Of a DNA stretch of 57,372 bases, positions 6,901 through 48,836 are shown piece by piece. A program made the position numbers and the translations under genes. The stretch spans positions 1 through 57,372 of the forward strand of contig JAUYAM010000003.1 in assembly GCA_030693425.1 (NCBI GenBank), read 5' to 3'. The DNA is from a bacterium (GTDB lineage Bacteria > Patescibacteriota > Minisyncoccia > Minisyncoccales > GWA2-46-15). The notes under the pieces were generated by a model. It was given only the letters and a program-made list of their open reading frames with translations, did not search any database and was not told the DNA's origin. Position 1 is the first letter of the stretch; the number at the start of each line of letters is the position of its first letter.

Positions 6901-7614
6901 CAGGGACAAGTCGAAATAGTCGATCTCGGAAATAATTTTCAACACTTTCAGGTTTGAAACTTCGTCCCTGGCTGCGTCCCTGGCTCGTTTTAAATCATGT
7001 TCTGCTCCTTTTTTTTCTTTCGCTAAAACCTTTTCGGCGTCTCTCTTGTCTTTGTCCTGTTTTTTACCTTTGGCGCTTTCGGCTTTTGCCTGCCCGCCCG
7101 AATCCGCCGACTGGCGGAGTAGGCGGGACTTTTGAATTTTGAGTTTGCTCTGGTATTCCTTGTCGATTTGCTCCAAGATCTTTTTCTTGGTTTCCTCGTC
7201 AACTTTGGTAATAATGTAAGCGTTGAAATAAATGACTTTTTCCAACTGGGACATCGGCAAATCCAAAACCTGCCCCATTCTTGAGGGAACGCCTCTTAAA
7301 AACCAGATGTGGGAAACGGGAGAGGCCAGCTTGATATGGCCCATCCTTTCCCTTCGAACCTGGGCTTTGGTGACCTCGACTCCGCATTTGTCGCAAACAA
7401 TGCCTTTGTGGCGGATGCCCCGGTATTTGCCGCAGTAGCATTCATAGTCTTTTTCCGGCCCGAAGATCTTTTCGTCAAACAAGCCTTCTTTCTCGGGTTT
7501 TTGGGTGCGGTAGTTGATCGTCTCGGGCTTAGTCACTTCGCCGTGGCTCCAAGCCAAAATCTCCTCGGGCGAGGCGAGCTTGATGCGGATAGCTTGTAAA
7601 TCGGCGACTCTCAT
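3916..7614 (-). CDS. rpoC: DNA-directed RNA polymerase subunit beta'
   Basis: 1232 aa. Zn-finger CYCGKYRGIRHKGIVCDKCGVEV, catalytic NADFDGDQMAVH, and a conserved C-terminal GKLIPAGTG. Confidence 0.98.
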   Translation of the reverse strand: MRVADLQAIRIKLASPEEILAWSHGEVTKPETINYRTQKPEKEGLFDEKIFGPEKDYECYCGKYRGIRHKGIVCDKCGVEVTKAQVRRERMGHIKLASPVSHIWFLRGVPSRMGQVLDLPMSQLEKVIYFNAYIITKVDEETKKKILEQIDKEYQSKLKIQKSRLLRQSADSGGQAKAESAKGKKQDKDKRDAEKVLAKEKKGAEHDLKRARDAARDEVSNLKVLKIISEIDYFDLSLKYGHCFEAGSGAESLRKIFGGVDLKKQVSRLRQELETASPLNKRKVLKRIKLLQGMEKAHIRPEWMFLTVLPVLPPDLRPMVQLDGGRYASSDLNDLYRRVINRNNRLKYLLEIGAPEVIVRNEKRMLQEAVDALIDNGMRKGTMTQATTGGRRLLKSLADILKGKQGRFRQNLLGKRVDYSGRSVIVVGPELLLHQVGLPKKMALELFKPFVIKKVLDKELAYNVRGASRLIDQETDDIWAILEEVVKDKLVLLNRAPTLHRLGIQAFYPILIEGEAIRIHPLVCRAFNADFDGDQMAVHLPLSEEAQKEAREIMLSSLNLLKPATGLPIVSPTQDIVLGCYWFTKLRAGAKGEGKIFGSPDEALLAHEFGELDLQAQIKVPSLLVKGDKKPAKGDRKNAADFIETSAGRLIFNQALPEDFPFQNQEMNSKRLEELIREVIEKYGISKTQPILDKIKTTGFDGATRSGISWGMDDLKVPAEKPKLIEAAEKEIAALDSHYQKGFLSREEKYQRSIEVWQRAKSEIEKLVPKALPDQGSVFTIIDSGARGSWAQPVQMAGMKGLVINPVGRIIELPIKHSYKEGFDVLEYFLSTHGARKGTADTALRTSTAGYLTRRLVDVNHEVIVKDDDCGDDNGILLLRREADEISQNFLMKIIGRVALEDIGSMVKKGEIIDWEKGKEIVRVGIDQVRARSPLSCKLLKGVCRKCYGWDFGKGKMVEIGEAVGVVAAQAIGEPGTQLTMKTFHMGGVASGGDITMGLPRVEEIFETRVPVGKGVISQASGSVTDIVDQMIITVKPEGDDLKKAKAKKQETLEYQIPKGRGILVKVGDKVLPGQPLCEGNLDLKELFKIVGQDQTQNHIIREVQRIYASQGAAIHDKHLEVVVRQMFSRLKIKDSGDSDFIQGEIVSKTKFSGENKRLKKEGKKPAVSLPVLLGISKVALATDSFLSAASFIETSRVLIRAAIEGKEDCLEGLKENVIIGKLIPAGTGYKK

Positions 7615-11135: not shown

Positions 11136-11289
11136 AAAAAGCGAAAAAACCCCGCCAGGATTGGGGCTACTAAAAGTTAAGCTTTTAATCTAGCCGAAGA
11201 GGCTTCAAGTTACCTCTGAAATTATTTAAAACGCTAATGCTTTTAAACTATATCAAAAAACCCAAATTGTCTAGGGCGCGTATAGAAGT

Positions 11290-16473: not shown

Positions 16474-16492
16474 AAAGGAGCTTAGCTCCTTT
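16474..16492. repeat. Perfect 19-bp palindrome AAAGGAGCTTAGCTCCTTT
   Basis: Read directly. Translates as KELSSF in the extended yraN ORF. Confidence 0.9.
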
Positions 16493-16577: not shown

Positions 16578-16602
16578 CCCATTGACGACAGTCGTCAATG
16601 GG
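16578..16602. repeat. REP-like perfect palindrome, family 1 (CCCATTGACGACAGTCGTCAATGGG)
   Basis: 25-bp perfect palindrome in the comM-yraN spacer. Same core (TTGACGACWGTCGTCAA) as the copies around the transposase gene at 19781-20494. Confidence 0.9.
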
Positions 16603-16606
16603 CTAT

Positions 16607-16625
16607 AAAGGAGCTTAGCTCCTTT
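16607..16625. repeat. Perfect 19-bp palindrome AAAGGAGCTTAGCTCCTTT
   Basis: Read directly, 4 nt after the family-1 palindrome. Confidence 0.9.
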
Positions 16626-19069: not shown

Positions 19070-19088
19070 AAAGGAGCTTAGATCCTTT
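19070..19088. repeat. Palindrome AAAGGAGCTTAGATCCTTT (1 mismatch) in the comFC-dprA spacer
   Basis: Read directly, 17 nt upstream of the dprA start. Confidence 0.8.
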
Positions 19089-19107: not shown

Positions 19108-19740
19108 CTACATGGTACGAGCCAGGGTGAAGCCAAAAACCCTCTTTACTCCCGACTTTCTTAAAACCTTGGCACATTCTTTCATTGTCGCTCCGCTTGT
19201 CCAAATATCATCTACTAGTAGAACATTGTCACTAAAGGAGCTAAGCTCCTTTCTTCGAAAGGAATCTTTGACGTTGACTAACCGCTTTGTCTTGTCTAAT
19301 TTTGTTTGGGACGGCGTGTCTTTTATTTTTTCCAGCAGAGGTAATATCTTTTTCCTTGTAATTTCTCCGATTTTTTTGGCTATTAATTCCGCCTGGTTAA
19401 ACCCTCTCCGTCTTTCTTTTTTCTTGAAAAGGGGCACAAAAGTTATTATTGTGTCTTCCGGAACATACGGTTCTCTTGTTTCAAAAGCCTTTTCAACAAG
19501 CTCGTCGATGGCGTCAAACATCCCGTCGTATTTAATTTTAAAAATAATCTCTTTGATCAACCCTTCGTACTCCCAACAACTAACCACTTCCTCCACGCTT
19601 CCCTGTTGAAAAAGACTGGGGGCTTCGGAAAGAAATAAGCTGCATTTTTCGCAAATATACTTTCCCTCTTTGCCGCAACCAACGCAACTTCTCGGCAAAA
19701 TTATATCCAAAACCGTCTCTTTTAATTTCTCCCACATCAT
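19108..19740 (-). CDS. comFC: ComF-family phosphoribosyltransferase-like competence protein (ComFC)
   Basis: N-terminal Cys4 (CVGCG...CEKC) and the PRTase motif VLLVDDIWTSGATM. Confidence 0.9.
   Translation of the reverse strand: MMWEKLKETVLDIILPRSCVGCGKEGKYICEKCSLFLSEAPSLFQQGSVEEVVSCWEYEGLIKEIIFKIKYDGMFDAIDELVEKAFETREPYVPEDTIITFVPLFKKKERRRGFNQAELIAKKIGEITRKKILPLLEKIKDTPSQTKLDKTKRLVNVKDSFRRKELSSFSDNVLLVDDIWTSGATMKECAKVLRKSGVKRVFGFTLARTM
19234..19252. repeat. Perfect 19-bp palindrome AAAGGAGCTAAGCTCCTTT inside comFC coding sequence
   Basis: Read directly. Encodes KELSSF just before the PRTase motif. The central base is A, so it is inverted relative to 16474. Confidence 0.9.
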
Positions 19741-19756: not shown

Positions 19757-19779
19757 TCATTGACGACAGTCGTCAATGA
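19757..19779. repeat. REP-like palindrome family 1 (TCATTGACGACAGTCGTCAATGA), immediately 3' of the transposase gene
   Basis: 23-bp perfect palindrome, ending 2 nt before the stop codon at 19781. Confidence 0.9.
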
Positions 19780-19780
19780 A

Positions 19781-20494
19781 CTAATCTTCTAATGTTAATT
19801 TCCCTAATTCATTATCTAAATTTACTTGTTCTAAACATTGTTTTGCAAATTCTTTATATTGTTCCGGGCCTAAAAATAATTCTCCTAAAATATCTTTATC
19901 GATAATTGGAGAATCTCTTTTGCCCGCATAATCTGCCAAACTGCAATAAGGATATTTAATCGCCCAATCATAAGCTTTTTCAAATTCATTAACCGCTTTT
20001 TTGTATCCCCCTGGATACATTTCAAAAACATTTTTTACTTGAATGTACACGCTAAGATACTTAAAATATATTTCTTCATCTATTATTTTTGACCTATACG
20101 GACCCTGAAATAGTCTTCCATTTTCTTGGTGTCTTGTATTAAAATATTTTGCCATGCTTGTCCCGAACCTTTTCATAAAAAAACTTATACCGTTCTCCCT
20201 GATTTCTTTCAGAAACAAATGATAATGATTTTCCAATAAGGAAAAGCTAATAATCTTTACAAGCGGTTTTCTTTCCGGCCAGTTGCCCGGCCAAATAAAT
20301 GGCTTATTGACGACAGTCGTCAATGAAGTCTGTATTTTATAAAAGGGGTTGGCCGCTACAAATTCATCGTTAAGATAATATAGTATTTCTAAAAAGTGCC
20401 ACTTGTCCTTATTATCTCTAACAATTTCTTGCTTTCTGTTCCCGCGATTATATACATGCACGAACGAACCAATTGTAATTTTTTCTCTTTGCAT
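19781..20494 (-). CDS. IS200/IS605-type Y1 HUH transposase-like protein (REP-associated tyrosine transposase-like)
   Basis: 237 aa. An N-terminal VHVYNRGN strand, an HUH motif in LLENHYHLFLKE, and a Tyr-containing helix YLSVYIQVKN. Flanked by cognate palindromes. Confidence 0.85.
   Translation of the reverse strand: MQREKITIGSFVHVYNRGNRKQEIVRDNKDKWHFLEILYYLNDEFVAANPFYKIQTSLTTVVNKPFIWPGNWPERKPLVKIISFSLLENHYHLFLKEIRENGISFFMKRFGTSMAKYFNTRHQENGRLFQGPYRSKIIDEEIYFKYLSVYIQVKNVFEMYPGGYKKAVNEFEKAYDWAIKYPYCSLADYAGKRDSPIIDKDILGELFLGPEQYKEFAKQCLEQVNLDNELGKLTLED
20306..20324. repeat. REP family 1 palindrome (ATTGACGACAGTCGTCAAT) inside the transposase ORF
   Basis: Read directly. In frame, encodes SLTTVVNK about 30 aa upstream of the HUH motif. 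Confidence 0.9.
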
Positions 20495-20509
20495 TTTAGT
20501 TTATCAGTG

Positions 20510-23500
20510 TCATTGACGACTGTCGTCAACTGTCATTGGGCTTGGCACGGTTTCTAGCGACGCTAAAGGCTCGGGCGAGGGTTCGGGGCTGGGCGCGGGC
20601 GACGCTGCCGGGGTTTCACTTGGGGATGGTCCTTCGACAGGCTCAGGATAAACTACAGGCGATTCGCTCGGCGCCGGAGAAGGTTCTGGCGTTGGCGACG
20701 GCGTTTCCGGCGGCAGTGCGTTAACACCTGACGTTAAATCGGGCGCACCAACGTCAGGTGTTGGCGCGGCTGGTAAAACCGAATTATTAGACTGCGGGAA
20801 GGGCTGGTTGGCAGCGGATTTATCGCAATCCCCACGGAATTTCTGCCACTCGCCGTTCTCAATCCAGGTGCACCAGATCTCTCCGGTAGCCCGGTCAACC
20901 ATTTCAATCTTGTCCACGCGGGCGGTCTCGGCCGTGACTTTTCCGACAATGATTTCTTTGAGCTGAGCAATGCCGTTTTCCAGAATCAGGCCTAGAGAAG
21001 CTAAAACCTGCTTGATTTTCGCTTCCAGCCAAGGCATGGGCGTTTCCGAGCCGATGCCGCCTTCAGAATTCAAGTCAATGCCTAAAATTGTTTTAATCTC
21101 GGCAATGTCCTGATTTTGTTTCTTGGCCACTTCCAAGAGATAAAGCGGGATCTTGTCGTATTTCAAGCCATTGGGAAGGCCGTCTTTGTCGTAAATAACC
21201 AACTCGCCCAAACCGACATTGGCAAATTCTTCGGCAATAAAGCCGATTTCTTCATGGCCAGAGGCCTTGTCAGTAAAGAGTTTCGGCGAAACTTCTAAGA
21301 TTTTATTAAAGTCGACTTCAAATAAACGGATGTTATCTTTGTATCTTTGAGAAGAGGAATCGTAATAGAAGTTGCCGGTAGCAGTGTCAACCCTGACAAG
21401 ATTGTAACTGGCTGTGCCGGTCAGGCCGGCAACGGCAAATTTGGTTCCAGGAGCTGTCGTCCCGATGCCGACGTTGCCGCCTGCCAAAATGACAAACTTG
21501 TCTCCGCCGACACCAGTAGATGAGTTTACTTCAAAAGCATTGGCAGTGGCGCCATCGGCCAAAACAATCTTTTGGCCAACCACAGCCGTAGAGCCGATAT
21601 TCAAAGTTAAGCTGGCCCCGGCTAAAGTCACCACGTCGCCAGCTTGAGTAAGCGTGGCATCGCCATTGTCCCAGTTAACCACCCCGCCTTCAGCTAAGAA
21701 CAGATCTGAGAATTGTAAAGCGGTTGTGCCTAAATAAGCGCCGTCATTGGCATCGGGAACGAAACCGGTGGCAGCGGAAACCAATATTGATTGCAGTTGC
21801 GCCGTAGAAGCATTGAATATCAAGCCGGCATTTGTTCTAGCGCCTAAACTACCGGACGCCGCTGTCGCAAACAAAGGAAAAGAGGTGGTGTCAGCCGCTT
21901 CATCTGCCACTGTCACAGTGACGGCGTTGCCCGTGATTGAACCGGCAATGACATTGGTAACTTCCAGGTCAGTAAACCAGCCTTTTACCACGCGGGTGCC
22001 TGTCGCGCCTAAAGAACCTGTAATGTAAGATGTCCCAACTACATGGAGCGGAGCGCCTGGATCTATTGTCCCGATGCCGACGTAGCCGGCAAAATAAGCG
22101 GCGCCGTCTGAATCAATGTTAGCCACTTCGCTTCCGTTTTTGGTTTGGATGGAGAGTTTGGTGTTTCCGGAATTATCGCCGAGTTTTAGGTTAAGGTTAG
22201 CCTGGTTATTGGCTTTAATGTTGGCGGCGGTGAGGGAATCAATTGCCAGTTCTCCCTCGGTCATGGTCAGGCTGCCGGTGAGGGTTAAGTCTTTAGTAGT
22301 AATGGATTTTTGGACAGTTAAATCACCGGACTGGCTCATGGAAAACTTCCCGCCGGCGACACCGAAATCAAACTCTTTGGATTTAAGCTTGCCGGAAAAA
22401 TTGGCAGTCACAGCGTTTAAGTCTTTGACAACAGTCAAATCTCCGTTTCCGGAGAGGTTGGCTAACTGGGTCTTAACTCCTAGATTATCTAGTTTATAAA
22501 ATGTAATATTTCCGTCAGTATCAACAGCCAAATTCGGGTTGTACCAGGAAATATTTACCAGCATTGATATTTTTCCACAGGTTATAGAAGGATCGGTGCC
22601 GGAAGGACAGTTAATTATTTGCTCCGGATGATTAATTGGGTCAAAAGCCTCTAAGGCCTTGCCCACTGACGGTCCGACGTTGGTGGCTTTCATGCCAAAG
22701 CCGGGAATGGCGGAAGAGGTAAGAATATCGCCGATGTTGACTTGACCATTGGCAGTAGAGACTTTTATAGGAACTCTACCAGACATGGCAATGGGTTGAG
22801 GATTAGTGGAAAAATTAATTACTGCTCTCCCGAATGTTTGGACCGGAGAAGTTGAAACAATTCCTAATACCTCTTTCTGATAAGATTGATCAGCTTTTTT
22901 TACAATAGTTACTGTTTTTTGTTCGTTTTCGCCAAGAAGTTCTCCAGTTAGAGCGTTTACCTTAGGAGATTCGTAGTTCAAGGTTTGATTTGTGGCTGAA
23001 ACAATGTCAGCCGGCTCAACTCCGGTTTCTGCAGGATACCACTCGGCAATGTCTCCCGGCGCTGCTGAGCAAGCAACAATATCACGGTCGACAAAAGTGG
23101 TATCAGAGTCGGCACCTGAATGGCACAGTCCATTGGTGGTGGCGGTACCATTAGAATCAAGTTGAATATCCCCATTAACCTCAAATTCTTGACTCGGTGC
23201 CACCCCGATGCCGACGTAGCCGGCAGCGGTTATTGTCATTCTTGTAGAAACAGCGGCGCTGCTTTCAGTAGTTTGAAGATAAATTGCTCCGCCAGTGCCA
23301 TCAGTTGTTACGCTTACACCGCCAACTCCACCCCTTAAATATAAAACTCCTCCTGTGCCGCCAAGTGTATCTCCAGTCCCGCCTATTCCACCATATACAT
23401 AAGCATTTCCGCCAGCGCTACCTTGTAGCCCACCAGCTCCCCCAGTTCCACCCCTTAAATATGAAGCCCCGCCAACGCCAGAAGTATCTGAAGTCCCGCC

Positions 23501-26500
23501 AGAAGCCACTCCGCCTGTTCCTCCAGTTAAAGTAATTCCTCCGCCTGCTCCGCCCACCCTTGTTGTTCCTATCGTAGTTGCCGTCCCGCCAGTTCCTCCT
23601 GTAATAGTTGCAGTTCCACCTTTACCGCCAGTAGAGGAGGTCGCAGCCGAACTGGCAACACCTCCAACTCCACCCGCAAAAGTAAAGTCTGCTCCTATTC
23701 CGCCAACTCCAGTTGAAGCAATTGAGGTTGTCCCGCCTATTCCGCCTGAAATTACCAAAGTATCTGTTGCCGCAGTCCCCGGAGTTGTGCCGGCATCCGC
23801 GGGTTGTGATCCGGCAATGTTGAGCACTGCAGTTGGTGTCGCGTCTCCGATGCCGACGTTGCCAGTAGAATCTAATATCATTTTTTGATCCGCACCGATA
23901 TACCAGTTGAAGCCGGGACCCCTGAAATCAAGGCCTGTTGACGAAACACCTAACCCGTGTACCGCATTACTATCACCATCGTCATAGAGCTTAAGTTTCA
24001 TATTCGCTCCTCCAGTATTTGAATATGTGCCTCCGAGTGACAACGTAACAGGAGTAGCTGTTTCTACCGGGCTTTGTGTTCCAATCTGGAGAGTATTCAA
24101 CGGACTGGTCGTCCCGATGCCGACGTTACCAGCATTTGTAATTGTCACAGCAGCATTTGTCAAATCTGCACTTGTGACATCAGCGGCTGATTGAGCCAAA
24201 AAGTGTAATGACCCTCTACCATAAGTAGAAGTTCGCTCGAATACAATCGCTGACTTTATTGGATAATCAGAACCACTAGAATATGAAGCAAACCCCATGC
24301 CCACAAAAGCATTAGTAGCTATATTTCCTTGTATACGTAGGTCAAATGTGTTTGGCGCAGAGTACTGAATATGAAGTCTACCTTGTGGCGCTGTCGTCCC
24401 GATGCCGACGTTGCCGGCTCCTGCTTCTGAGACAAAAGCATAGGTGTTGGTTACAGACGATCCTCCACTGGTGGTTGGCGCGGCGGCATAGTTCAGGTAG
24501 AGATTGGTGACCACGCTGGTTGTCCCAATCCCGATGTTTCCGCTGGCATAGTTGACAAACAGATTGGTAAGTTGGGGCGATGTCCCTCCTATCCCAATGT
24601 TCGGTCTGTTGTATAAACCATAGATCGAAGTTACCGGAGTAGCCGAAGCCATTGTTCCCGTGTAACTGTTGTTGAGCTTGGTGGTGTAGTATGTTCCCGC
24701 ACTGACGGCTGTAACTGACTGACCAATATCCAAAGTTCCTCCTGGCCCCGTCGTCCCGATGCCGACGTTGCCACTGTTTGTTATTCTCATTCTCTCGTCG
24801 GCCATCCCCACTGGGCCTGCATCGGAAGCAGAATCATTTAAAAATACTATATCGCCCTTACCCCAAAAACCAGTAGTGTTAACGTATCCAATAGCACCCT
24901 TTCCCATTCTCCCCGCCGCACCATCCACAAGAAAATTTTGAAAAACGGTATATCCGATGTCATTGTAGGGATTTGCAAGGATTGAGGCGTAGACAACTCC
25001 CGATGCGGCGACAGGTGAAACGTGAAGTGTGGCTAATGGTCCCGTTGTCCCGATGCCGACGTTGCCGGCATTTGCTTCTGTGACAAAAGCATATTTGTTA
25101 GTCAAGGTGCCTGCGGTTACTGTAGGAGCGGCGATGTAAGAACCATACCAATTTGTTACCGTTGTCCCACTTTTATTTAAAGTAAAACCACTCTTTTGAT
25201 TGAATATGTTGGTAACAGTATTACCAGTGTATGTGGGATTGACATCCAAATAACCGCCCGGAGACCCTGTCGCGATGCCGACGTTGCCCCCACCTGTAAC
25301 TAGTGCGTAACCAGTAGTTGAAGTAAAGTAGCCCCCAATACCCGATGAAGCATTCTGTCCATACACGCCATAGCCGGTACTGCTGTTATATCCATGCACA
25401 CCTTTGCCGGCGGCGCCAGCGTTAGATCCATACACGCCGTAGCTGGTGCCGGTGCCATATATGCCGGCGTTGGCTACACCGGCACCTCCAACACTCAATG
25501 TCGATATGGGTCCCGTTGTCCCGATGCCGACATTCCCGCCTGCCAGGATAACAAACTTGTCCCCGCCCACTCCGGCTGAAGAATTGACTTCAAAAGCATT
25601 GGCAGTGGCGTTGGCAGCCAGGACAATCTTCTGGCCGACTACGGCAGTGGAACCGATACCAAGGTGCAAAAGGGCAGTAGGTGCCGTCGTCCCGATGCCG
25701 ACGTTGCCGCCTGTATTGAAATAACTGTTTCCGTTATACCCTCTAAAACGAATTGTTGGAGTTACGCTACTATCACTACTAAATAAGTCGAAATATCCGC
25801 CTGAGTTATTCCCTAACAAAGATCCTGCACGGATAGAGCCAGTTGTTAAATTTATTCCAGTACCTTCTGTTGCACCAACTATGTCTAACTTATACCCTGG
25901 CCCTGTCGTCCCGATGCCGACGTTGCCGCCGTCATACACTCCAAAAATTGTGGAGCCATTGTCCCTTGCCAAGAAAATTGGGGAAGTTTGAGTACCATTG
26001 TCTGCAATTAAAGCTGCTGATTCAAAAGTGGGTGTAGTATTTTGCAGCCCAAAATAACCAGCGATTTGTATCGGAGAGGTGCCGGTATTAAGTCCAAAAG
26101 CGGCTAATCCAATATTTGTGGCTGAGTTCTTGGCAATGGTAGCTCTGCCTAAGATGCCGAAATTTACATTGCCGTTTTCTCCCAAACCAAACAGACCAAT
26201 GTTTGTACCCGTTGTTGTACCATAAGCTAGACTGTTATTGCCTATATTGGTAGAAGGAGAAGTAGCTGCGGTAGAAAGATTCAAATTCGTCCCTGTTCCC
26301 GCGACCGAATTTCCGATAAATAATCCACGGGCACCAGAAGTACCCGTGTAACCAGCATTATATAATATTCTCATTGCTCCATTGTTAAAACTGGAACTTC
26401 CAGCACTGGTAACATTAACATCGATTCCAAATTGCACATTTGTTATAACTGTGGGTTGGGTGGCGGTTATACTTAAACTATTAGTCTGGTCAGTAAGTGT

Positions 26501-29500
26501 TCCACTTGCAATATCCAGTGTTGCCCCCGGTGCCGTCGTCCCGATGCCGACGTTGCCGCTACTATCAATTCTCATTCTTTCGGTAGAACTTTCCGAGCCG
26601 TCGGCAGTTGTCCAAAAACTTAAACGCCCTGGCATATCTCCTGCACCTGGTGTGCCATCTACGTAAGCAGCGATGTATGCGGCAGTTGACTGATAGTCAA
26701 CACCATCATCTCCGCCCCAAGCAATCATTCCTAACTGGTCATTGTTTTGTGCGATTGTGTAGCTACCGATGGCAGCATTACGGCTTTTGCCAAAAATTAA
26801 CTTAGGCGCAAGGGCATCTGCTGATGCTCGAAATATACCAATTGATGAATCTACCGCACCCGTTCCCAATACTTGCAATTCTGGTATCTGACCGGCTCCT
26901 GAGCCAGCCGTTAGTGTCACCTGTGATGAGTTGCCAATGATTAAACCAAATCCATTTGATATTTCAGTATCCCCATTAACCGTTAATACATTACCAGGTA
27001 AAGTCGTCCCGATGCCGACGTTGCCGGCTCCTGCTTCTGAGACAAAAGCATAGGTGTTGGTGACCGATGACCCACTATTTAAAGTTGGCGCGGCTGCATA
27101 GTTCAGGTAGAGATTGGTGACCACGCTGGTTGTCCCAATCCCGATGTTTCCACTAGTGTAGTTAACAAACAGATTGGTCAGCTGGGGTGATGTTCCTCCT
27201 ATCCCGACATTCGGCCGGTTATACAAACCATAGATACTCGTCACCGGAGTGGCTGAAGCCATTGTTCCCGTGTAACTGTTGTTGAGTTTGGCGGTGTAGT
27301 ATGTCCCAGCGCTTGCTGCCGTGACTGCCTGACCAATATCCAATGTCCCTCCCGGACTCGTCGTCCCGATGCCGACTAGGCCCGCCGAAGTGACAACGAA
27401 GGAGGCCGTTGCCGAACTATTGACTTGAAAAATTTGTGATGGCGCCGTCGTCCCGATGCCGACGTTGCCGGCTTTCAGATATAAAGTATTGACAATGGCG
27501 CCGGTGTTTACCGATGTGAAAGGCACGACCGAGTTTTGAGTCAGAGTAAAATCCGCGCCCGGAGCAATGTTGGCGATGACCGGAGAGGTAATAGTGGGCG
27601 AAGCGTTAAAAACTGCAAGCCCTGTGCCTGTTTCGTCGGTTACGGCAGCAATCAAGTTCGCAGATGTCGGGGTTCCGAGGAATGTCGCCACACCTGTGGC
27701 AAGTCCACTTACACCTGTGCTGATAGGCAACCCAGTGGCGTTGGTAAGCACACCTGAAGCAGGAGTGCCTAATGCTGGAGCCACAAACGTTTTATTACTC
27801 ATCGTCTGGGCTTTGGTTTTGAAAGTGAACTCATCCACTACATTGGCAAAATCTGGGATAGTCAGAGTCGTAGCCCCAACTGTTTGGGCGGTAAGTGCGA
27901 CATCTACAAGATACGCATTTGTTAATTTAAGAGGAGTAGCCGCGGAAGTTGCGAGAGAGGTTGCAGAAGCTACGCCGAGAGTTGGAGTTGTCAAAGCAGG
28001 CGAGGTTGAAAATACTAAATTAGTTGATGTAGTGCCAGTTGCGCCTGCGGCGGTATAACCCGTGATATTGTTAAATAAAGTAATTGAAGCAGTTGAACCT
28101 CCTGTCCCACCGTCTGCAACTGCAACATCATTTCCTCCTGTGCTGTAAATTGTTCCCGTTATTCCTTGTAGAGTTAGAGTTGTCGTTCCCGCTACTGCGG
28201 CGGCATTCAAAATAGATGAACCAGAAGTTGAACCGGCGAGAATAAACTTATCAACAGCCCCTCCGATAGTTCCAAATGTTTTAGCTCCTGTTACCGTTTG
28301 AACAGAAGCAAGAACCATATCTCCAGCCCCGGCAGTAGCCCAAGTTAATACTCCCGCACCATCTGTTTGCAATAATTGGTTCGCGGTTCCATCATCGATG
28401 GGTAGAGTAAGCGTGTAAGTTCCTGCTGCTGCGGCAGGTTGAATGATAATTTTACCAGAAGTATTGCCAGCAAATGAAATAACACCCTTAGTAGTTCCTG
28501 CTAATCCTAATGATAATAATTCAAGTGGTGCCGTCGTCCCGATCCCTACATTCCCGCCTGCCAGAATGACAAACTTGTCCCCGCCGACTCCGGCAGAAGA
28601 GTTGACTTCAAAAGCGTTGGCAGTAGCTCCCGAAGCCAAAACAATCTTTTGACCGACAACAGCGGTGGAACCGATGCCTAAATGTAATAAAGCGGTGGGA
28701 GCGGTAGTGCCGATGCCCAGATTGCCGTTAATTCCTACAACATCTGTCGAAAAATCTCCCCAGATTAAAGGCGAGGAGGAATTTGAATTTTCAATGTATA
28801 GTTTATTAGAGCCCGTTTCGTTATATCCTGCTTGATAGCCAAAAAATATGTTGCTGGAACCATCGCCATTGTAACCAGCTGCATAACCTATCAAGACATT
28901 ATTAGTGCCGGTATTAAGGGCGGCAGTAGTATAGCCAATAGCAATACTATTGCCTCCAGCAATGGCATTTTTACCCACAGCCACAGCTTGATTGCCGGTC
29001 GTGCTCGCATCGGATCCTATGGCCACGCCCCTGTAAGCAGCAGAAGCGTTGGAACCAATAGCAACGGCTCTGCTGTTAGTAACGGTAGCAACGTACCCTA
29101 TTGCCACTGATTCGGTAAAAGAACCGACAGAAGCAAGATAACCAAACTTTTCGCTCGAACTATTGGTCAAACTTGTAATATTTCCGACCACCTGCAAGGC
29201 TGCTATCGGTTCCGTCGTCCCGATGCCGATGTTGCCGCTTCCTAAAATTGTCATTGCTTGGGCCAGAGCACTGTCTGTGGTGCTGGTGATGGCGGTAATG
29301 CTGACAGTTGCTCCTGTCCCTGTTCCGCCGGTGGTTACCTTGCCCGTGCCGGTCGTGTAGCCTGTTCCTGCCGCCGCCGGAGCCGTGTTCAAGGTTAGAA
29401 CCACGCCGCTTCCATCAACTGTGGCTACCGTCACTGTTCCACCCGTTCCTCCAGTCGTAACCGTCAAAGTGTCAGCGGCAGTGTAACCAGTCCCGCCAGC

Positions 29501-30955
29501 GGTAGGTGTTGCGCTTATGGTGCTGATACCTCCTGTGGTTAGAGCAGAAGAAGTCCAGAACTGTATTTGTCCCGTCCCCGTTCCCGTGGAAAGACCAGAA
29601 GAAAGAACCAGTGACCCACCATTTTTATCTGTGGCCCCACTGGTTGCTCCACCGGCATTGACCGTCAAAGCATATCCGGCCGTATCGGCAACCGTCCCCC
29701 GTTCCATACCAAAACCTCTGGCCGCATCGCCGCCTAATCCAAGTAAACGAGTCGGTCCCGTCGTCCCGATGCCGACGTTGCCGGCAGTGGAATCAATGAT
29801 CAATCCATAAGAAGTGCCTGATGTGACTGTTCCTCCGGTTATCTTTAAGCCGGTAGAGGTGACTGTACCCGTTGTTTGAGTGATATTCGGCATCGTGACG
29901 TCAAGCCCTGTCCAGGTGTCTGTGCCGGTGAGTGTGTTCTGGACCAAGGCGCCGCCGGTAATAACCAGGCCTTTGTAAGCATAGGTTGAGGCGCCGGTGT
30001 TGGTGACAGCCGGCAAGCTAATGGTTTGGCCGGTCGCGGAATAACCCGTGGCCGTGATATTGGTTGACAAATCTATTGCCTGGCCAACCAAATTGCCTGC
30101 TAAAGTGGCGGCTGCTCCGTAAGCCAGGTTCAGGACAGTGCCCGAAGTATTCTTGGAGTTTAAATAAGCCAGGTTGGCAGAAGAGACATTGGTGCCGGTT
30201 AAAGTCAGGGCCGTGGCATTGGATCCTGGCACGGCTGACAGGATGGTGAAAGCGCCGGTTGAGGGTGTAGTAGAACCAATGCCGGCGGGCGAACCCCAGG
30301 TATAGCCGCTTAATTGCTTGGCTTCAAAGGCAGCCGGCACTGCGCCCAAAACTTTTCTCGGCTTCATTTCCGAGTCAGCGCCGACAGTGACGCCTAGATA
30401 AAGCGTCTGGTTGAAGTTGACTGAACTCAAAGATGTAATTGTCCCTAGCATTGTCGAGAACAAGCCGTTCTTAACATAAATCCGATTGGTAATGTCGTCG
30501 TTACTCACCCAGGTTGAAGCCGGATCGTAAAAGCAGACATAACCGCCAGCTCCTGCGGCGCTGACTGACTGAATGACGGCTGATTCCTTTTTGGTCGTGT
30601 TCCACAAATACTGGCCAGCTGCCAAAGCGCTTTCGTTGGTATCGGTGGTATATGCCATCTTATCCACCCCGGTAGCACAGCCGTCATTGGTAAAAGTGGT
30701 GGTGCCGGTTTCGGTAAACAAAGCAGCGCTGGTCCAAGACTCGGTCCAGCTGGTCGAACCGCCGCCGGCAACGGTATAAAGATTGAAAACAATGTCATAG
30801 GCATTGTCAGCCACTGCCTGACTGCTGGTATCAGTTAATTTTCCCTGGTAATTGATTTTTTCATTTATCGCTGCCAAAGACTCCTGGACAAAAACAGCCC
30901 TAAAGAGGAGAAGGAGCAGAAGGATAATACAGATTTTGGCAGCTTTGTTGTTCAT
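20510..30955 (-). CDS. Giant secreted fibre/adhesin-like protein with about 24 GNVGIGTT repeats and a C-terminal tail-fibre-type intramolecular chaperone domain
   Basis: Uninterrupted ORF. Start chosen at ATG 30955 (MNNKAAKICIILLLLLLF... signal peptide). The track start at 31015 would overlap the upstream gene by 44 nt. The tail is Pro/Ser-rich. Confidence 0.9.
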   Translation of the reverse strand: MNNKAAKICIILLLLLLFRAVFVQESLAAINEKINYQGKLTDTSSQAVADNAYDIVFNLYTVAGGGSTSWTESWTSAALFTETGTTTFTNDGCATGVDKMAYTTDTNESALAAGQYLWNTTKKESAVIQSVSAAGAGGYVCFYDPASTWVSNDDITNRIYVKNGLFSTMLGTITSLSSVNFNQTLYLGVTVGADSEMKPRKVLGAVPAAFEAKQLSGYTWGSPAGIGSTTPSTGAFTILSAVPGSNATALTLTGTNVSSANLAYLNSKNTSGTVLNLAYGAAATLAGNLVGQAIDLSTNITATGYSATGQTISLPAVTNTGASTYAYKGLVITGGALVQNTLTGTDTWTGLDVTMPNITQTTGTVTSTGLKITGGTVTSGTSYGLIIDSTAGNVGIGTTGPTRLLGLGGDAARGFGMERGTVADTAGYALTVNAGGATSGATDKNGGSLVLSSGLSTGTGTGQIQFWTSSALTTGGISTISATPTAGGTGYTAADTLTVTTGGTGGTVTVATVDGSGVVLTLNTAPAAAGTGYTTGTGKVTTGGTGTGATVSITAITSTTDSALAQAMTILGSGNIGIGTTEPIAALQVVGNITSLTNSSSEKFGYLASVGSFTESVAIGYVATVTNSRAVAIGSNASAAYRGVAIGSDASTTGNQAVAVGKNAIAGGNSIAIGYTTAALNTGTNNVLIGYAAGYNGDGSSNIFFGYQAGYNETGSNKLYIENSNSSSPLIWGDFSTDVVGINGNLGIGTTAPTALLHLGIGSTAVVGQKIVLASGATANAFEVNSSAGVGGDKFVILAGGNVGIGTTAPLELLSLGLAGTTKGVISFAGNTSGKIIIQPAAAAGTYTLTLPIDDGTANQLLQTDGAGVLTWATAGAGDMVLASVQTVTGAKTFGTIGGAVDKFILAGSTSGSSILNAAAVAGTTTLTLQGITGTIYSTGGNDVAVADGGTGGSTASITLFNNITGYTAAGATGTTSTNLVFSTSPALTTPTLGVASATSLATSAATPLKLTNAYLVDVALTAQTVGATTLTIPDFANVVDEFTFKTKAQTMSNKTFVAPALGTPASGVLTNATGLPISTGVSGLATGVATFLGTPTSANLIAAVTDETGTGLAVFNASPTITSPVIANIAPGADFTLTQNSVVPFTSVNTGAIVNTLYLKAGNVGIGTTAPSQIFQVNSSATASFVVTSAGLVGIGTTSPGGTLDIGQAVTAASAGTYYTAKLNNSYTGTMASATPVTSIYGLYNRPNVGIGGTSPQLTNLFVNYTSGNIGIGTTSVVTNLYLNYAAAPTLNSGSSVTNTYAFVSEAGAGNVGIGTTLPGNVLTVNGDTEISNGFGLIIGNSSQVTLTAGSGAGQIPELQVLGTGAVDSSIGIFRASADALAPKLIFGKSRNAAIGSYTIAQNNDQLGMIAWGGDDGVDYQSTAAYIAAYVDGTPGAGDMPGRLSFWTTADGSESSTERMRIDSSGNVGIGTTAPGATLDIASGTLTDQTNSLSITATQPTVITNVQFGIDVNVTSAGSSSFNNGAMRILYNAGYTGTSGARGLFIGNSVAGTGTNLNLSTAATSPSTNIGNNSLAYGTTTGTNIGLFGLGENGNVNFGILGRATIAKNSATNIGLAAFGLNTGTSPIQIAGYFGLQNTTPTFESAALIADNGTQTSPIFLARDNGSTIFGVYDGGNVGIGTTGPGYKLDIVGATEGTGINLTTGSIRAGSLLGNNSGGYFDLFSSDSSVTPTIRFRGYNGNSYFNTGGNVGIGTTAPTALLHLGIGSTAVVGQKIVLAANATANAFEVNSSAGVGGDKFVILAGGNVGIGTTGPISTLSVGGAGVANAGIYGTGTSYGVYGSNAGAAGKGVHGYNSSTGYGVYGQNASSGIGGYFTSTTGYALVTGGGNVGIATGSPGGYLDVNPTYTGNTVTNIFNQKSGFTLNKSGTTVTNWYGSYIAAPTVTAGTLTNKYAFVTEANAGNVGIGTTGPLATLHVSPVAASGVVYASILANPYNDIGYTVFQNFLVDGAAGRMGKGAIGYVNTTGFWGKGDIVFLNDSASDAGPVGMADERMRITNSGNVGIGTTGPGGTLDIGQSVTAVSAGTYYTTKLNNSYTGTMASATPVTSIYGLYNRPNIGIGGTSPQLTNLFVNYASGNIGIGTTSVVTNLYLNYAAAPTTSGGSSVTNTYAFVSEAGAGNVGIGTTAPQGRLHIQYSAPNTFDLRIQGNIATNAFVGMGFASYSSGSDYPIKSAIVFERTSTYGRGSLHFLAQSAADVTSADLTNAAVTITNAGNVGIGTTSPLNTLQIGTQSPVETATPVTLSLGGTYSNTGGANMKLKLYDDGDSNAVHGLGVSSTGLDFRGPGFNWYIGADQKMILDSTGNVGIGDATPTAVLNIAGSQPADAGTTPGTAATDTLVISGGIGGTTSIASTGVGGIGADFTFAGGVGGVASSAATSSTGGKGGTATITGGTGGTATTIGTTRVGGAGGGITLTGGTGGVASGGTSDTSGVGGASYLRGGTGGAGGLQGSAGGNAYVYGGIGGTGDTLGGTGGVLYLRGGVGGVSVTTDGTGGAIYLQTTESSAAVSTRMTITAAGYVGIGVAPSQEFEVNGDIQLDSNGTATTNGLCHSGADSDTTFVDRDIVACSAAPGDIAEWYPAETGVEPADIVSATNQTLNYESPKVNALTGELLGENEQKTVTIVKKADQSYQKEVLGIVSTSPVQTFGRAVINFSTNPQPIAMSGRVPIKVSTANGQVNIGDILTSSAIPGFGMKATNVGPSVGKALEAFDPINHPEQIINCPSGTDPSITCGKISMLVNISWYNPNLAVDTDGNITFYKLDNLGVKTQLANLSGNGDLTVVKDLNAVTANFSGKLKSKEFDFGVAGGKFSMSQSGDLTVQKSITTKDLTLTGSLTMTEGELAIDSLTAANIKANNQANLNLKLGDNSGNTKLSIQTKNGSEVANIDSDGAAYFAGYVGIGTIDPGAPLHVVGTSYITGSLGATGTRVVKGWFTDLEVTNVIAGSITGNAVTVTVADEAADTTSFPLFATAASGSLGARTNAGLIFNASTAQLQSILVSAATGFVPDANDGAYLGTTALQFSDLFLAEGGVVNWDNGDATLTQAGDVVTLAGASLTLNIGSTAVVGQKIVLADGATANAFEVNSSTGVGGDKFVILAGGNVGIGTTAPGTKFAVAGLTGTASYNLVRVDTATGNFYYDSSSQRYKDNIRLFEVDFNKILEVSPKLFTDKASGHEEIGFIAEEFANVGLGELVIYDKDGLPNGLKYDKIPLYLLEVAKKQNQDIAEIKTILGIDLNSEGGIGSETPMPWLEAKIKQVLASLGLILENGIAQLKEIIVGKVTAETARVDKIEMVDRATGEIWCTWIENGEWQKFRGDCDKSAANQPFPQSNNSVLPAAPTPDVGAPDLTSGVNALPPETPSPTPEPSPAPSESPVVYPEPVEGPSPSETPAASPAPSPEPSPEPLASLETVPSPMTVDDSRQ
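20513..20529. repeat. REP family 1 palindrome (TTGACGACTGTCGTCAA) between the giant ORF and the transposase gene
   Basis: Read directly. The central base is T, so it is inverted relative to 19757 and 20306. Lies 18 nt upstream of the transposase start and supplies the last codons (..DDSRQ) of the giant ORF. Confidence 0.9.
21060..21370 (-). other. Peptidase_S74-like intramolecular chaperone (endosialidase/tail-fibre C-terminal) domain within the giant ORF
   Basis: Translation YYDSSSQRYKDNIRLFEVDFNKILEVSPKLFTDK....EIGFIAEEFANVGLGELV fits the S-x-x-K-x-N-I ... IGFIAqE pattern of auto-cleaving tail-fibre chaperone domains. Coordinates are approximate. Confidence 0.6.
24393..24772. repeat. About 380-bp intragenic direct repeat, copy 1 (partner at 27003-27382)
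   Basis: Long blocks identical by eye (e.g. 'gtcgtcccgatgccgacgttgccggctcctgcttctgagacaaaagcataggtgttgg'). Encodes GGTLDIGQ.VTA.SAGTYYT.KLNNSYTGTMASATPVTSIYGLYNRPN.GIGGTSPQLTNLFVNY..GNIGIGTTSVVTNLYLNYAAAPT. Confidence 0.85.
25515..25708. repeat. About 190-bp intragenic repeat (copies at 21456-21606 partial, 25515-25708 and 28533-28726)
   Basis: Encodes GIGTTAPTALLHLGIGSTAVVGQKIVLA..ATANAFEVNSS.GVGGDKFVILAGGNVGIGTT three times. Nucleotide similarity seen directly. Confidence 0.8.
27003..27382. repeat. About 380-bp intragenic direct repeat, copy 2
   Basis: See 24393-24772. The mismatches are of all substitution types. Confidence 0.85.
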
Positions 30956-30971
30956 CAAAAATAATAAAAAG

Positions 30972-31442
30972 TTATGGCTGGGGAATGGTCGAACCCTGGA
31001 CCTCCTTAGTCTCATCTAAAGAATAATTGGTAAAAGCTGAAAGATTGAACCGGCCGATAGTCTCTCCGCCTGACCCGCCTAAAATGATTTTGTCAACTAT
31101 CATACTTTTAGGTTCGATAAAATCGCCAGCCCCGGCATTAATGTTCAAACCCAGGCCCAAAAAAATAAAAATACCAATACCCACCAAAACAAAAAACCAG
31201 GCCACTAAACCCAAAAGCCGGTCTGGTCTAAATAAACGCCTAAGCCTGACTGCCGGAAGAGAGATTTTTTTTAGGTGAAAATAGTTTTCAAGAGCTTGGT
31301 TAGCAATAAACCAGTCCCGACCGACCATTTTTCCTTTAAGTTTGCCTTTGCGGATTAATAAACCCAAATAATCCGGATGGTAGCCGGAAATATGCGACGC
31401 TTGCTTAAGGGAAAGAAACCCTTTTTCTGGAATAGTGGTCAT
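30972..31442 (-). CDS. Membrane-anchored protein with N-terminal excisionase/MerR-type helix-turn-helix
   Basis: LSLKQASHISGYHPDYLGLLIRKGKLKGKMVGRDWFI fits the HTH_17-type pattern, followed by one TM helix (LLGLVAWFFVLVGIGIFIFLGL). Paralogous N-terminus to 42392-43468. Confidence 0.75.
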   Translation of the reverse strand: MTTIPEKGFLSLKQASHISGYHPDYLGLLIRKGKLKGKMVGRDWFIANQALENYFHLKKISLPAVRLRRLFRPDRLLGLVAWFFVLVGIGIFIFLGLGLNINAGAGDFIEPKSMIVDKIILGGSGGETIGRFNLSAFTNYSLDETKEVQGSTIPQP

Positions 31443-31843: not shown

Positions 31844-31863
31844 CCCCGCAGCAAGCTGCGGGG
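31844..31863. repeat. Hairpin CCCCGCAGCAAGCTGCGGGG (twin at 31912-31931)
   Basis: Read directly. The twin differs by a compensatory A:T to T:A swap in the stem. Both are followed by TAT. Confidence 0.8.
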
Positions 31864-31911: not shown

Positions 31912-31931
31912 CCCCGCTGCAAGCAGCGGGG
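31912..31931. repeat. Hairpin CCCCGCTGCAAGCAGCGGGG
   Basis: Read directly, 68 bp after its twin. Confidence 0.8.
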
Positions 31932-43588: not shown

Positions 43589-43835
43589 GTATCCGATATC
43601 ATTATCGGATACTAGAAATATTAAGGTAATTTTCTTATCTGTTGAGTTTCCGTTGAGGCCTAACCTCAACAGGAGTAAATCCCTACAACGAGGAATATAC
43701 GGTTCAGCTACGACCGTAGCTGAAAGTGAAGTTAATACCTTCTCCTTGACCTTATTTTTCTTAGTTGACGACTGTCGTCAACGAGGGCACATGATATTTC
43801 GGGTTAAGGCGTGTGCTTAACCTGGTTAAGCACAC
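43589..43835. repeat. Array of five different perfect palindromes spaced 47-63 bp apart
   Basis: 43589-43612 gtatccgata/tatcggatac; 43652-43670 gttgagg/cctcaac; 43703-43724 ttcagctacg/cgtagctgaa; 43764-43782 gttgacgac-t-gtcgtcaac (REP family 1); 43811-43835 gtgtgcttaac/gttaagcacac. Confidence 0.85.
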
Positions 43836-45751: not shown

Positions 45752-45790
45752 AAAAGGAACTTAGTTCCTTTTAAAGGAACTAAGTTCCTT
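45752..45790. repeat. Two adjacent palindromes AAAAGGAACTTAGTTCCTTTT and AAGGAACTAAGTTCCTT (variant of the AAAGGAGCTWAGCTCCTTT family with a compensatory G>A / C>T change)
   Basis: Read directly, in the ligA / PaaX-like spacer. Confidence 0.85.
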
Positions 45791-48000: not shown

Positions 48001-48019
48001 CCCGAGGTCAGACCTCGGG
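48001..48019. repeat. REP-like palindrome family 2 (CCCGAGGTCAGACCTCGGG), 3' of the transposase gene
   Basis: Perfect 19-bp palindrome 20 nt downstream of the stop at 48039. Confidence 0.9.
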
Positions 48020-48038: not shown

Positions 48039-48749
48039 TTACTCCAAACCGATTTTTTCCGGGTCATAAAAACTACCCTTATAATCAATTTGTTGATTGA
48101 TAAGATCACGGCACCTTTTTTCTCCGCCAATCGTTTTTAATAAAAATTTCCTTTCGCTGACTGATGGAAAATTCTTCTTGCCAATATAGTCTAGATAACT
48201 CGACCAACGATAATTTTTTAGAAAATGTTTAGCCCTTGCTCGATTTCTGATGCCTTTTTCTTTCCATTTCGGCTCAATAATGGCAAGCGGGTTGGTGTGA
48301 ATATAAGTGAGAACCCTTTCCAGCTGTTTATCGGTCTTGATGTGAACGGCGTGAAACCGTCCCTGAAATAAATGACCGCTACGTTTGTATTTCCGATTAA
48401 AATAAGAGGCATAACCAGTACCCAATTTTTGGATAAATAGACTGATGCCCTTGGGTTTTATCTGCCGTAAAAGCAAATGAATATGATTGGGCATTAATAC
48501 AAAAACTAAAACCTCAACTAATAAAGTCCGTTCAAAATTACCCGAGGTCAGACCTCGGGCCATCTGTTTTTTAAAACGAAAACGCTCTTTTCTCCGATCT
48601 TTAATAGATACTGGTTTGGCATTATTGAACTCGAATAAGGAAAAAATCCCGCGGTAATGATCCGCTTCGTCCAAAAAAATCTGCCTCTGCTCAACTCCAC
48701 GGAGAACGATGTGGTAAATTTCTCCGTCAACTAGCTTTGGTCTTTTCAT
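48039..48749 (-). CDS. IS200/IS605-type Y1 HUH transposase-like protein (second, divergent RAYT-like gene)
   Basis: 236 aa with IYHIVLRGV, the HUH motif in LMPNHIHLLLRQ, GHLFQGRF, and the catalytic-Tyr helix LTYIHTNPL. Confidence 0.88.
   Translation of the reverse strand: MKRPKLVDGEIYHIVLRGVEQRQIFLDEADHYRGIFSLFEFNNAKPVSIKDRRKERFRFKKQMARGLTSGNFERTLLVEVLVFVLMPNHIHLLLRQIKPKGISLFIQKLGTGYASYFNRKYKRSGHLFQGRFHAVHIKTDKQLERVLTYIHTNPLAIIEPKWKEKGIRNRARAKHFLKNYRWSSYLDYIGKKNFPSVSERKFLLKTIGGEKRCRDLINQQIDYKGSFYDPEKIGLE
48541..48559. repeat. REP family 2 palindrome inside the transposase ORF
   Basis: Perfect copy, in frame, encoding ARGLTSG about 20 aa upstream of the HUH motif. Confidence 0.9.
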
Positions 48750-48779
48750 AAATTTGGAAAAGCGATCCGAGATCTAGCG

Positions 48780-48800
48780 TCCCGAGGTCTGACCTCGGGA
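48780..48800. repeat. REP family 2 palindrome (TCCCGAGGTCTGACCTCGGGA), 5' of the transposase gene
   Basis: 21-bp perfect palindrome. The central base is T, so it is inverted relative to the other two. Lies 31 nt upstream of the start. Confidence 0.9.
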
Positions 48801-48836
48801 CAATCTGGTTATTGGGTTATGGCGGGTCGCTTTAGA

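Follow-up and report, generated by a model that had tools for sequence, protein, structure and literature searches.

A REPtron is a gene for a transposase of the RAYT or TnpA-REP kind (REP, repetitive extragenic palindrome; RAYT, REP-associated tyrosine transposase) flanked by its cognate REPs, as described for E. coli yafM/rayT (PDB 4ER8), for groups 2 and 3 of Bertels, and for class 2 of Quentin. E. coli TnpA-REP carries out cleavage and strand transfer in vitro, and perfect 8-bp palindromes are known among the REPs of S. maltophilia. Here, we analyzed a 57,372-nucleotide stretch of DNA (positions 1 to 57,372 of contig JAUYAM010000003.1; “the window”) from a bacterium of the Patescibacteriota. 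It contains two Y1/HUH transposase homologues, gene 1 and gene 2, each with a copy of its own hairpin before the gene, another in frame within it, and a third after it (systems 1 and 2). The family to which these genes belong offers a compact natural experiment on the spread of REPs and on the matching of RAYTs with their REPs: each gene comes with three nearby copies of its presumed substrate, and one of them is policed in length and phase by a reading frame.

REPs inserted in frame were reported in the subclass 2.4 tnpA-REP genes of Cyanobacteria and Bacteroidetes (Quentin, Siguier, Chandler, and Fichant 2018, PMC6006769); intragenic REPs are not mentioned in Nunvar 2010, Bertels 2017, or Corneloup 2021. 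The subclass 2.4 insertions are located between HuH and Y of proteins with NH[IFV]H, WQ, and YIxNNP motifs, at the end of helix alphaB and far from the DNA-binding surface, and were interpreted by the authors as tolerated in a peripheral loop (PMC6006769). The layout seen in the window, which a first-pass annotation of this DNA had regarded as unusual, is therefore not without precedent. In-frame hairpins in such genes have been known once before, in another subclass; those described here are found in a different clade and at a different position, have a fixed codon phase, undergo concerted turnover with their flanking copies, and, in system 1, lack a GTAG guide.

Two transposase genes and their hairpins

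The palindrome TTGACGACnGTCGTCAA occurs five times in the window, three times at gene 1 and twice between other genes. Its core, TTGACGACNGTCGTCAA, has five exact matches, with 0.01 expected, and none of 100 shuffles reached five. At gene 2, the same arrangement before, inside, and after the gene is formed by the palindrome CCCGAGGTCnGACCTCGGG; CCCGAGGTCNGACCTCGGG has three matches in the window (at 48001, 48541, and 48781), with 0 expected. The entire 57-kb window, ~95% of which is coding, has only 16 perfect palindromes whose stem is 9 or longer; open reading frames (ORFs) harbor four of them, two of which are the internal copies of genes 1 and 2. Given the match counts compared to expectation and the scarcity of palindromes in such a coding window, the arrangement of hairpins is far beyond chance. 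The hairpin positions listed for both systems by the first-pass annotation all proved correct (Table 1).

Table 1. Coordinates of the transposase genes and hairpins in the window. Fold energies are for single-stranded DNA.
Feature	Position	Strand	Core TTGACGACNGTCGTCAA	Structure or product	Location and centre	Fold (kcal/mol)
Gene 1, Y1/HUH (RAYT-like) transposase homologue	19781..20494	−		237-aa ORF		
System-1 upstream copy	20513..20529		20513-20529		18 nt 5′ of gene 1 ATG; sense-strand centre A	−6.6
System-1 internal copy	20306..20324		20307-20323	ATTGACGACnGTCGTCAAT, 9+1+9	inside gene 1, in frame	
System-1 downstream copy	19757..19779		19760-19776	TCATTGACGACnGTCGTCAATGA, 11+1+11	1 nt past gene 1 stop	−9.5
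System-1 dispersed copy	16578..16602		16582-16598	12+1+12	intergenic, between comM-like and yraN-like genes; adjoins third-family hairpin	
System-1 dispersed copy	43764..43782		43765-43781	9+1+9	intergenic	
Gene 2, paralogue of gene 1	48039..48749	−		236 aa; HUH motif PNHIHLL, Tyr motif YIHTNP		
System-2 upstream copy	48779..48801			11+1+11	~30 nt 5′ of gene 2 start; sense-strand centre A	−11.9
System-2 internal copy	48541..48559			A-R-G-L-T-S-G, aa 64-70	inside gene 2, in frame; centre on codon position 2	−9.3
System-2 downstream copy	48001..48019				20 nt past gene 2 stop	−9.2
Third hairpin family	16474-16492, 16607-16625, 19073-19085, 19234-19252, 45752-45790					

The internal copy of system 1 is read in frame as TTG ACG ACT GTC GTC AAT, which encodes L58-T-T-V-V-N63, with the third nucleotide of codon 60 at its centre. 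The wider segment S-L-T-T-V-V-N-K (amino acids 57 to 64) lies 27 to 33 amino acids N-terminal of H90/H92. As single-stranded DNA, this copy folds with −7.2 kcal/mol on the sense strand (z −4.6) and −7.6 kcal/mol on the antisense strand (z −5.1); values for the copies of systems 1 and 2 range from −6.6 to −11.9 kcal/mol. On the sense strand, the central nucleotide in both systems is A in the upstream copy and T in the internal and downstream copies. The downstream copy of system 1 sits within the 40-nt gap separating gene 1 from comF. On the other side, a 3501-aa repeat-rich ORF (20510..31015, minus strand) terminates inside the upstream hairpin (window 20510-20536), the palindrome supplying its last seven codons (T-V-D-D-S-R-Q) and the stop. 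An intrinsic terminator reading of the hairpins was rejected, since there is no T-run 3′ of them on the sense strand. A known RNA family was likewise rejected, as Rfam gave no match across the entire window.

The assignment of both genes as Y1/HUH transposase homologues of the RAYT kind, made in the first-pass annotation, is supported by profile and fold comparisons. Both proteins pass the Pfam PF01797 (Y1_Tnp) cutoff of 23 bits (24.9 for gene 1 and 39.9 for gene 2). With NCBIfam NF047646 (REP_Tyr_transpos), gene 2 scored 50.6 bits, under the cutoff of 80, and gene 1 had no match. A homologue database search yielded 469 proteins, the named ones being transposases of Patescibacteria or Omnitrophota. 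The HUH motif of gene 1 is at H90/H92, and its conserved tyrosine is Y150; in an alignment of 38 homologues, H92 and Y150 never vary, and at least 90% of the sequences keep H90. The tyrosine motif of gene 2, YIHTNP, is the class-2 Y---NP; in the gene-1 family, the motif is YIQVKN(P/V), one residue longer. A PDB sequence-profile search gave no match, and only the fold search was informative. Foldseek placed the gene 1 model closest to 4ER8_A (E. coli TnpA-REP with its REP hairpin), followed by the TnpA proteins of IS608, ISDra2, and IS200; matches to 4ER8_A, 2A6M, 2XO6, 2F4F, and 2VJV all had a probability of 1.00 and TM-scores (target) of 0.48 to 0.60.

In the AlphaFold2 model of gene 1 [predicted local distance difference test (pLDDT) score of 85], a strand (11-17) and a helix (28-40) are followed by a loop (41-78), the HUH-bearing strands (79-97), and then a helical C-terminal tail (~160-237). 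The pLDDT is below 50 solely at amino acids 56 to 60, within the palindrome-encoded segment. Among homologues, the segment aligned with SLTTVVNK is hypervariable, and many of the variants, e.g., LFRPGLNK, are translated palindromes. Homologues do not encode the segment by non-palindromic sequences, which the first-pass annotation had named as a refutation of its reading; they have other palindromes there instead. The intragenic copy thus does lie in a variable loop, as had been proposed. The loop between the first helix and the HUH strands, ~35 residues long, is missing from short RAYTs. Two close homologues, P0003 and P0014 (alignment A1, columns 105-130), have in-frame duplications in the hairpin-encoded segment, SLTT-SLTTVVNK (FRPGLNKPSVPGLNK), so the loop tolerates extra hairpin arms. 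It appears unlikely that the protein reads the hairpin through this loop, which is disordered as well as hypervariable and, judging from Quentin’s models, would face away from the DNA surface.

Genes 1 and 2 encode paralogues (27% identity, E value of 3e-21) whose palindrome-encoded segments are in the same loop, and the hairpins of both gene families fit one consensus, TGTTGAGGTCnGACCTCAACA. The two palindromes, which had been called unrelated, are therefore not truly so. The parallel between the genes, which had been taken to argue for function, was also given too much weight, since common descent of paralogues that inherited the site accounts for it.

The internal hairpin among relatives

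To survey the family, we used DNA of 80 loci from species-representative genomes, 80 loci from metagenomes (for gene 2), and 5 loci obtained by exact protein look-up. An internal palindrome was counted when its stem was at least 8 bp, and a flanking match was defined as the same palindrome within 200 nt of the gene. In the gene-1 family, 42 of 62 loci have such a palindrome at the same site of the ORF, with a different sequence each time. In these 42 loci, the internal palindrome recurred upstream of the gene in 36 and downstream of it in 32; 31 loci had it on both sides. Most of the gene-1-family loci without an internal copy keep the flanking pair. In the gene-2 family (51 distinct genes), 21 internal palindromes were found, with a match upstream in 15, downstream in 14, and on both sides in 11. 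When 58 close homologues of gene 1 were considered, ORF nucleotides 150 to 200 contained 29 perfect palindromes (stem of at least 8), compared to 10 in all of the remaining ORF length.

The alignment of internal hairpins from both families (A2) comprises 54 distinct sequences, no two of them alike. Double changes are seen at each of the 10 stem pairs (157 cells), with a covariation score of 0.83 versus 0.26 after shuffling. Since the sequences in A2 were preselected as palindromes, the percentage of paired positions is high by construction, and the weight of this alignment rests on the diversity of hairpins at one homologous site. We also applied a fixed-register test to 22 genes of 236 to 238 amino acids. 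With the centre set at nucleotide 180, 50% of positions were paired versus 27% in the background, and one control centre gave 53%. We prefer enrichment and covariation to this test because conserved motifs can themselves be palindromic and indels blur the register. The codons of M-E-N-H-F-H in L008 and L024 (ORF nucleotides ~256-276; ATGGAAAATCATTTCCAT), for example, form a 7-bp palindrome on their own, which warns that a conserved peptide motif can be mistaken for a hairpin.

Of 36 family-1 genes, 34 have the centre of the internal hairpin at codon position 3, and of 18 family-2 genes, 15 have it at codon position 2. Repeated insertion would scatter the phase; a fixed phase argues for descent in place. 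The repeated unit is the hairpin alone, and the copies have no flanking sequence in common. Judging from these comparisons, the internal site is old, its sequence having been swapped without indels.

The turnover can be followed between orthologues. The gene order Y1, comF-like, dprA, comM, yraN, TPR, rpoB, rpoC is common to the window and L084/L085 (73% identity), and a shorter neighborhood, Y1, comF-like, TPR, rpoB, is present in L081 (81% identity). In L081, all three sites are occupied by ATTGAAGCCnGGCTTCAAT, which differs from the window type by two compensatory pair changes; in L082 (80% identity), all three are occupied by TTGATGACnGTCATCAA. Just 5′ of its own upstream copy (~4470-4485), L081 retains a half-site relic of the window-type hairpin, CATTGACGACAGT, which suggests that incoming hairpins settle on or displace earlier ones. 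The loci L043 and L045 have flanking sequence in common, and four stem pairs differ between them in every copy, distal inverted doublets included. In L016, the same G.G mismatch is found in the upstream, internal, and downstream copies; these hairpins therefore derive from one another by copying and not from independent selection. The internal copy can also be lost. The L008-L013 clade keeps the gene, the catalytic motifs, and perfectly matched flanking hairpins, and its internal copy is a decayed relic; the internal copy is thus dispensable in some lineages. Within one cluster of gene-2 relatives, some genes have an internal copy that follows the flanking ones, and in others point mutations have eroded it. 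At L082 (80-1975) and L083 (3871-5025), an RVT_1 reverse transcriptase gene and a bAvd-like gene are found just upstream of the RAYT orthologue, an association reminiscent of a diversity-generating retroelement.

Copies are concentrated at the gene: in relatives, their density is 2.9 per kb within 200 nt of the gene versus 0.046 per kb in distal DNA, a 63-fold difference; the other result that the first-pass annotation had named as a refutation, a lack of enrichment near the gene, is thus not what the available DNA shows. The orientation of the loop centre (upstream/internal/downstream) differs between loci, and −++, ++−, −+−, and +++ patterns were all found. The layout with an inverted upstream copy, which had been described for both window genes and is indeed identical in them, is therefore no rule of the family.

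Short RAYT-like genes (~195 to 209 aa; L061, L063, L069, L070, L075, L077, and L079) have an intragenic hairpin at another site. In this group from the candidate phyla radiation (CPR), C(G/A)ACCCCnGGGGTTG, encoding S-T-P-G-V-E, directly follows YIHxNP; the upstream copy has the same orientation as the internal one, and the downstream copy is inverted. The internal copies of L070, L077, and L079 contain a sense-strand G.T wobble, which is also present in the upstream copies of L070 and L077.

In-frame hairpins are likewise found in the neighboring comF gene, which is unrelated to the transposase. The comF-like gene of the window contains a hairpin of a third family (19234-19252, AAAGGAGCTAAGCTCCTTT) that encodes KELSSF. 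In the comF orthologues of L084 (~11250-11275) and L005 (~4300-4320), the same loop is encoded in frame by the RAYT-cognate hairpin of the respective genome, TTGTTTAGGCCaGGCCTAAACAA, which yields LFRPGLNK. In L084, the comF copy is perfect and the RAYT-internal copy is degenerate. No in-frame hairpin was found in the comF orthologues of L081 and L001. An in-frame site at which the hairpin family changes is therefore not peculiar to the transposase gene. The third family, AAAGGARCTnAGYTCCTTT, has 6 matches in the window versus 0.5 expected and no matching transposase gene within the window. One copy, within the stretch that extends the yraN-like ORF at its N terminus, also encodes KELSSF; another, ahead of ligA, is an 18-bp inverted doublet. 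Hairpins with a third-family apex (GGAGCTTAGCTCC) flank the RAYT gene of L038.

Other perfect intergenic palindromes of the window are the pair CCCCGC(A/T)GCAAGC(T/A)GCGGGG (31844-31863 and 31912-31931), TTCAGCTACGACCGTAGCTGAA (43703-43724), and GTGTGCTTAACCtGGTTAAGCACAC (43811-43835). Nearly all long palindromes of the window are intergenic members of small families.

Origin and persistence of the internal hairpin

We favor, with a probability of about 0.6, the interpretation that gene and hairpins together make up a REPtron-like unit in both systems, in which the internal hairpin occupies a permissive loop and all copies are kept alike by copying. Such a unit would encode a REP-associated (RAYT/TnpA-REP) Y1/HUH nuclease that is present in single copy and inherited vertically, a domesticated transposase. 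The internal hairpin would be a genuine member of the gene’s own hairpin population and would undergo concerted evolution, its sequence giving way to a new one in step with those of the flanking and dispersed copies, and all copies would be substrates of one copying or repair process. The process could be an exchange of strands that the encoded enzyme catalyzes at the feet of the hairpins (cleavage and strand transfer) or replication template switching between and within hairpins. Either one would put the current master sequence in place of the hairpin already at a site and leave length and frame unchanged, and the reading frame would then filter the outcomes of copying. The protein would tolerate the turnover because the encoded residues are in a permissive surface loop. 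Under this scenario, the encoded enzyme presumably binds or cleaves the hairpins, some homogenizing mechanism of the kinds named is likely at work, and the internal hairpin probably has no selected function: it would persist mainly through molecular drive and tolerance, not through a need of the transposase, and a cis effect on expression of its own gene, if any, would be secondary.

Several observations weigh against this interpretation. In L038 (hairpins at 6932-6960, 7150-7176, and 7720-7746), the internal palindrome, GTCTGTCAGCACCaGGTGCTGACAGAC, is perfect over 13 bp and bears no relation to the flanking pair, GCTTGGCGGAGCTnAGCTCCGCCAAGC, and in L024, the internal copy is perfect yet one compensatory pair off its flanks. 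In these loci, palindromy at the internal site was restored independently of the flanks; selection could explain the restoration as well as self-templated correction could. Persistence at one site down to 27% protein identity is long for an unselected feature. Distal copies are rare: 523 kb of DNA of the relatives contained 24, and the 57-kb window has two extra ones, too few in the DNA at hand to establish these hairpins as “REPs” if the term means dispersed repeats of high copy number. Last, system 1 is without an evident conserved single-stranded guide of the GTAG type.

The internal hairpin may instead be a selected cis-element, which we consider possible at a probability well short of even. 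The enzyme would bind the 5′, internal, and 3′ copies, as single-stranded DNA that transcription or replication exposes or in its own mRNA, and thereby throttle its synthesis or nick the gene; or the internal copy would be a protected “seed” inseparable from the enzyme. The deep conservation of position and phase in two subfamilies is expected in this case, as is the maintenance of perfect palindromy in L038 and L024 though the internal copy departs from the flanks. Intragenic sites have also been gained at three places: the loop, the position after YIHxNP in the short CPR group, and the HuH-Y interval in subclass 2.4. Given the tiny intergenic gaps, the three copies would share one transcript, and tight control would be plausible by analogy with E. 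coli TnpA-REP, which is auto-inhibited and strongly down-regulated. However, the internal copy was lost in L008-L013 and in several relatives of gene 2, where the gene, catalytic residues, and flanks persist; comF, which has no reason to be controlled by a hairpin of changing family, hosts similar in-frame hairpins; and the orientation layout varies across the family. Mismatches in imperfect stems can tell an RNA or one-strand structure from a two-strand one, since G.T leaves a wobble pair on the sense strand and A.C leaves one on the antisense strand. The internal copies have 5 G.T and 6 A.C mismatches, and the upstream copies have 15 and 6, respectively, which gives no usable bias. With no strand bias at the internal copies, nothing points to an RNA or one-strand structure.

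In a more elaborate version, which we regard as doubtful, the transposase would hold a protected master copy of its own substrate that is maintained by selection. The enzyme would swap hairpins at the stem feet with length and frame preserved; the enzyme, the internal copy, and the genomic hairpins would co-evolve; and the copies would also act as cis operators limiting expression.

A very unlikely alternative is that a dimeric DNA-binding protein recognizes the palindromes as double-stranded operators and that the three copies cooperate by looping; this protein could be the transposase itself, acting through its C-terminal helical tail. The lac operators, one of which lies inside lacZ, provide a model for such cooperation. 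Perfect palindromes with an odd centre, covariation of half-sites (expected of a symmetric operator, too), the lack of strand bias, and the resemblance of subclass 2.1 protein tails to helix-turn-helix domains agree with it. At odds with it are the hairpins found at a distance from the gene, as dispersed copies or inverted doublets (L043, L045, and L052), those within comF, and the GTAG “double foot” REP-type feet of some relatives (L140). HUH/Y1 enzymes are known for recognition of single-stranded DNA hairpins, and the stem interior turns over fast between 80%-identical orthologues, which fits structure-based rather than base-specific recognition.

The idea that the unit is a mobile IS200/IS605-like insertion sequence, with the outer hairpins as its ends and the internal one as an alternative end for partial self-excision, draws on the fold in common with IS608, ISDra2, and IS200 TnpA and on a hairpin-bordered coding sequence as in IS200/IS605, but is largely refuted by orthologues that hold the same chromosomal neighborhood at 73 to 81% identity, same-genome paralogues that are strongly diverged (27% in the window) rather than identical, a Y---NP or YIQVKN tyrosine motif instead of the Y---Q of TnpA-IS200, the lack of an adjoining tnpB, and symmetric perfect palindromes in place of distinct left and right ends.

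Returning to the favored REPtron-like unit, all copies change together in dozens of lineages, and if their homogenization is driven by the enzyme, this implies a precise hairpin-for-hairpin exchange reaction. The results extend REPtron-like systems, and in-frame REPs in genes, to the small genomes of Patescibacteria and indicate that a hypervariable protein loop can be set by structure at the DNA level and not by selection at the protein level.

Comparison with known systems

The systems of the window resemble REPtrons in several respects. Gene 1 has a Y1/HUH fold with 4ER8 as its best structural match; the genes are single diverged copies in conserved synteny; each is bracketed by its own hairpins, with a separate hairpin family for each paralogue; and some dispersed singlets and inverted doublets are present among relatives. 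They differ from REPtrons in that both window genes miss the NCBIfam REP_Tyr_transpos cutoff, few dispersed copies occur in the DNA covered, a ~35-aa loop and a ~85-aa tail missing from the E. coli RAYT are present, and a hairpin is located inside the ORF. The hairpin foot GT[AG]G/CGTC is absent from both systems: system 1 has ATTG/GTTG in the stem, and system 2 has CCCG. Some relatives of gene 2 have GTAG or GTGG feet in the “double foot” form, e.g., AGTAGGGTCtGACCCTACT in L140.

The IS200/IS605 TnpA proteins have the same catalytic fold, and hairpins border their genes as well; in contrast to them, the genes studied here are not multi-copy, are not mobile on present evidence, have another tyrosine motif, and lack tnpB. 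The HUH replication initiators encoded by phiX174 gene A and pT181 repC have their nick site or origin in their own gene. The recognition structure of an HUH enzyme is thus embedded in its coding sequence, as here, a likeness that favors cis action. Those proteins, however, are of the Rep class and their site is an essential origin, whereas here the enzyme is of the Y1 class and the internal copy is dispensable in some lineages.

Subclass 2.4 is similar in having a cognate REP in the transposase ORF with the frame intact, in a variable peripheral region, and in its “double foot” palindromic REPs. The genes studied here fall outside this subclass, since the internal hairpin precedes HuH by 27 to 33 amino acids and FQ is present, not WQ. 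They have a single site, N-terminal of HuH where the first long helix ends, in a fixed codon phase; their motifs, compared by eye to the published table, are FQ and NH[YF]H versus WQ and YIxNNP; and their hosts belong to Patescibacteria and Omnitrophota. By the same by-eye comparison, Quentin’s subclass 2.1 is closer, with FQ, NH[YF]H, and a tail with a conserved Ser. For the genes studied here, concerted turnover of the internal hairpin with its flanking copies is documented.

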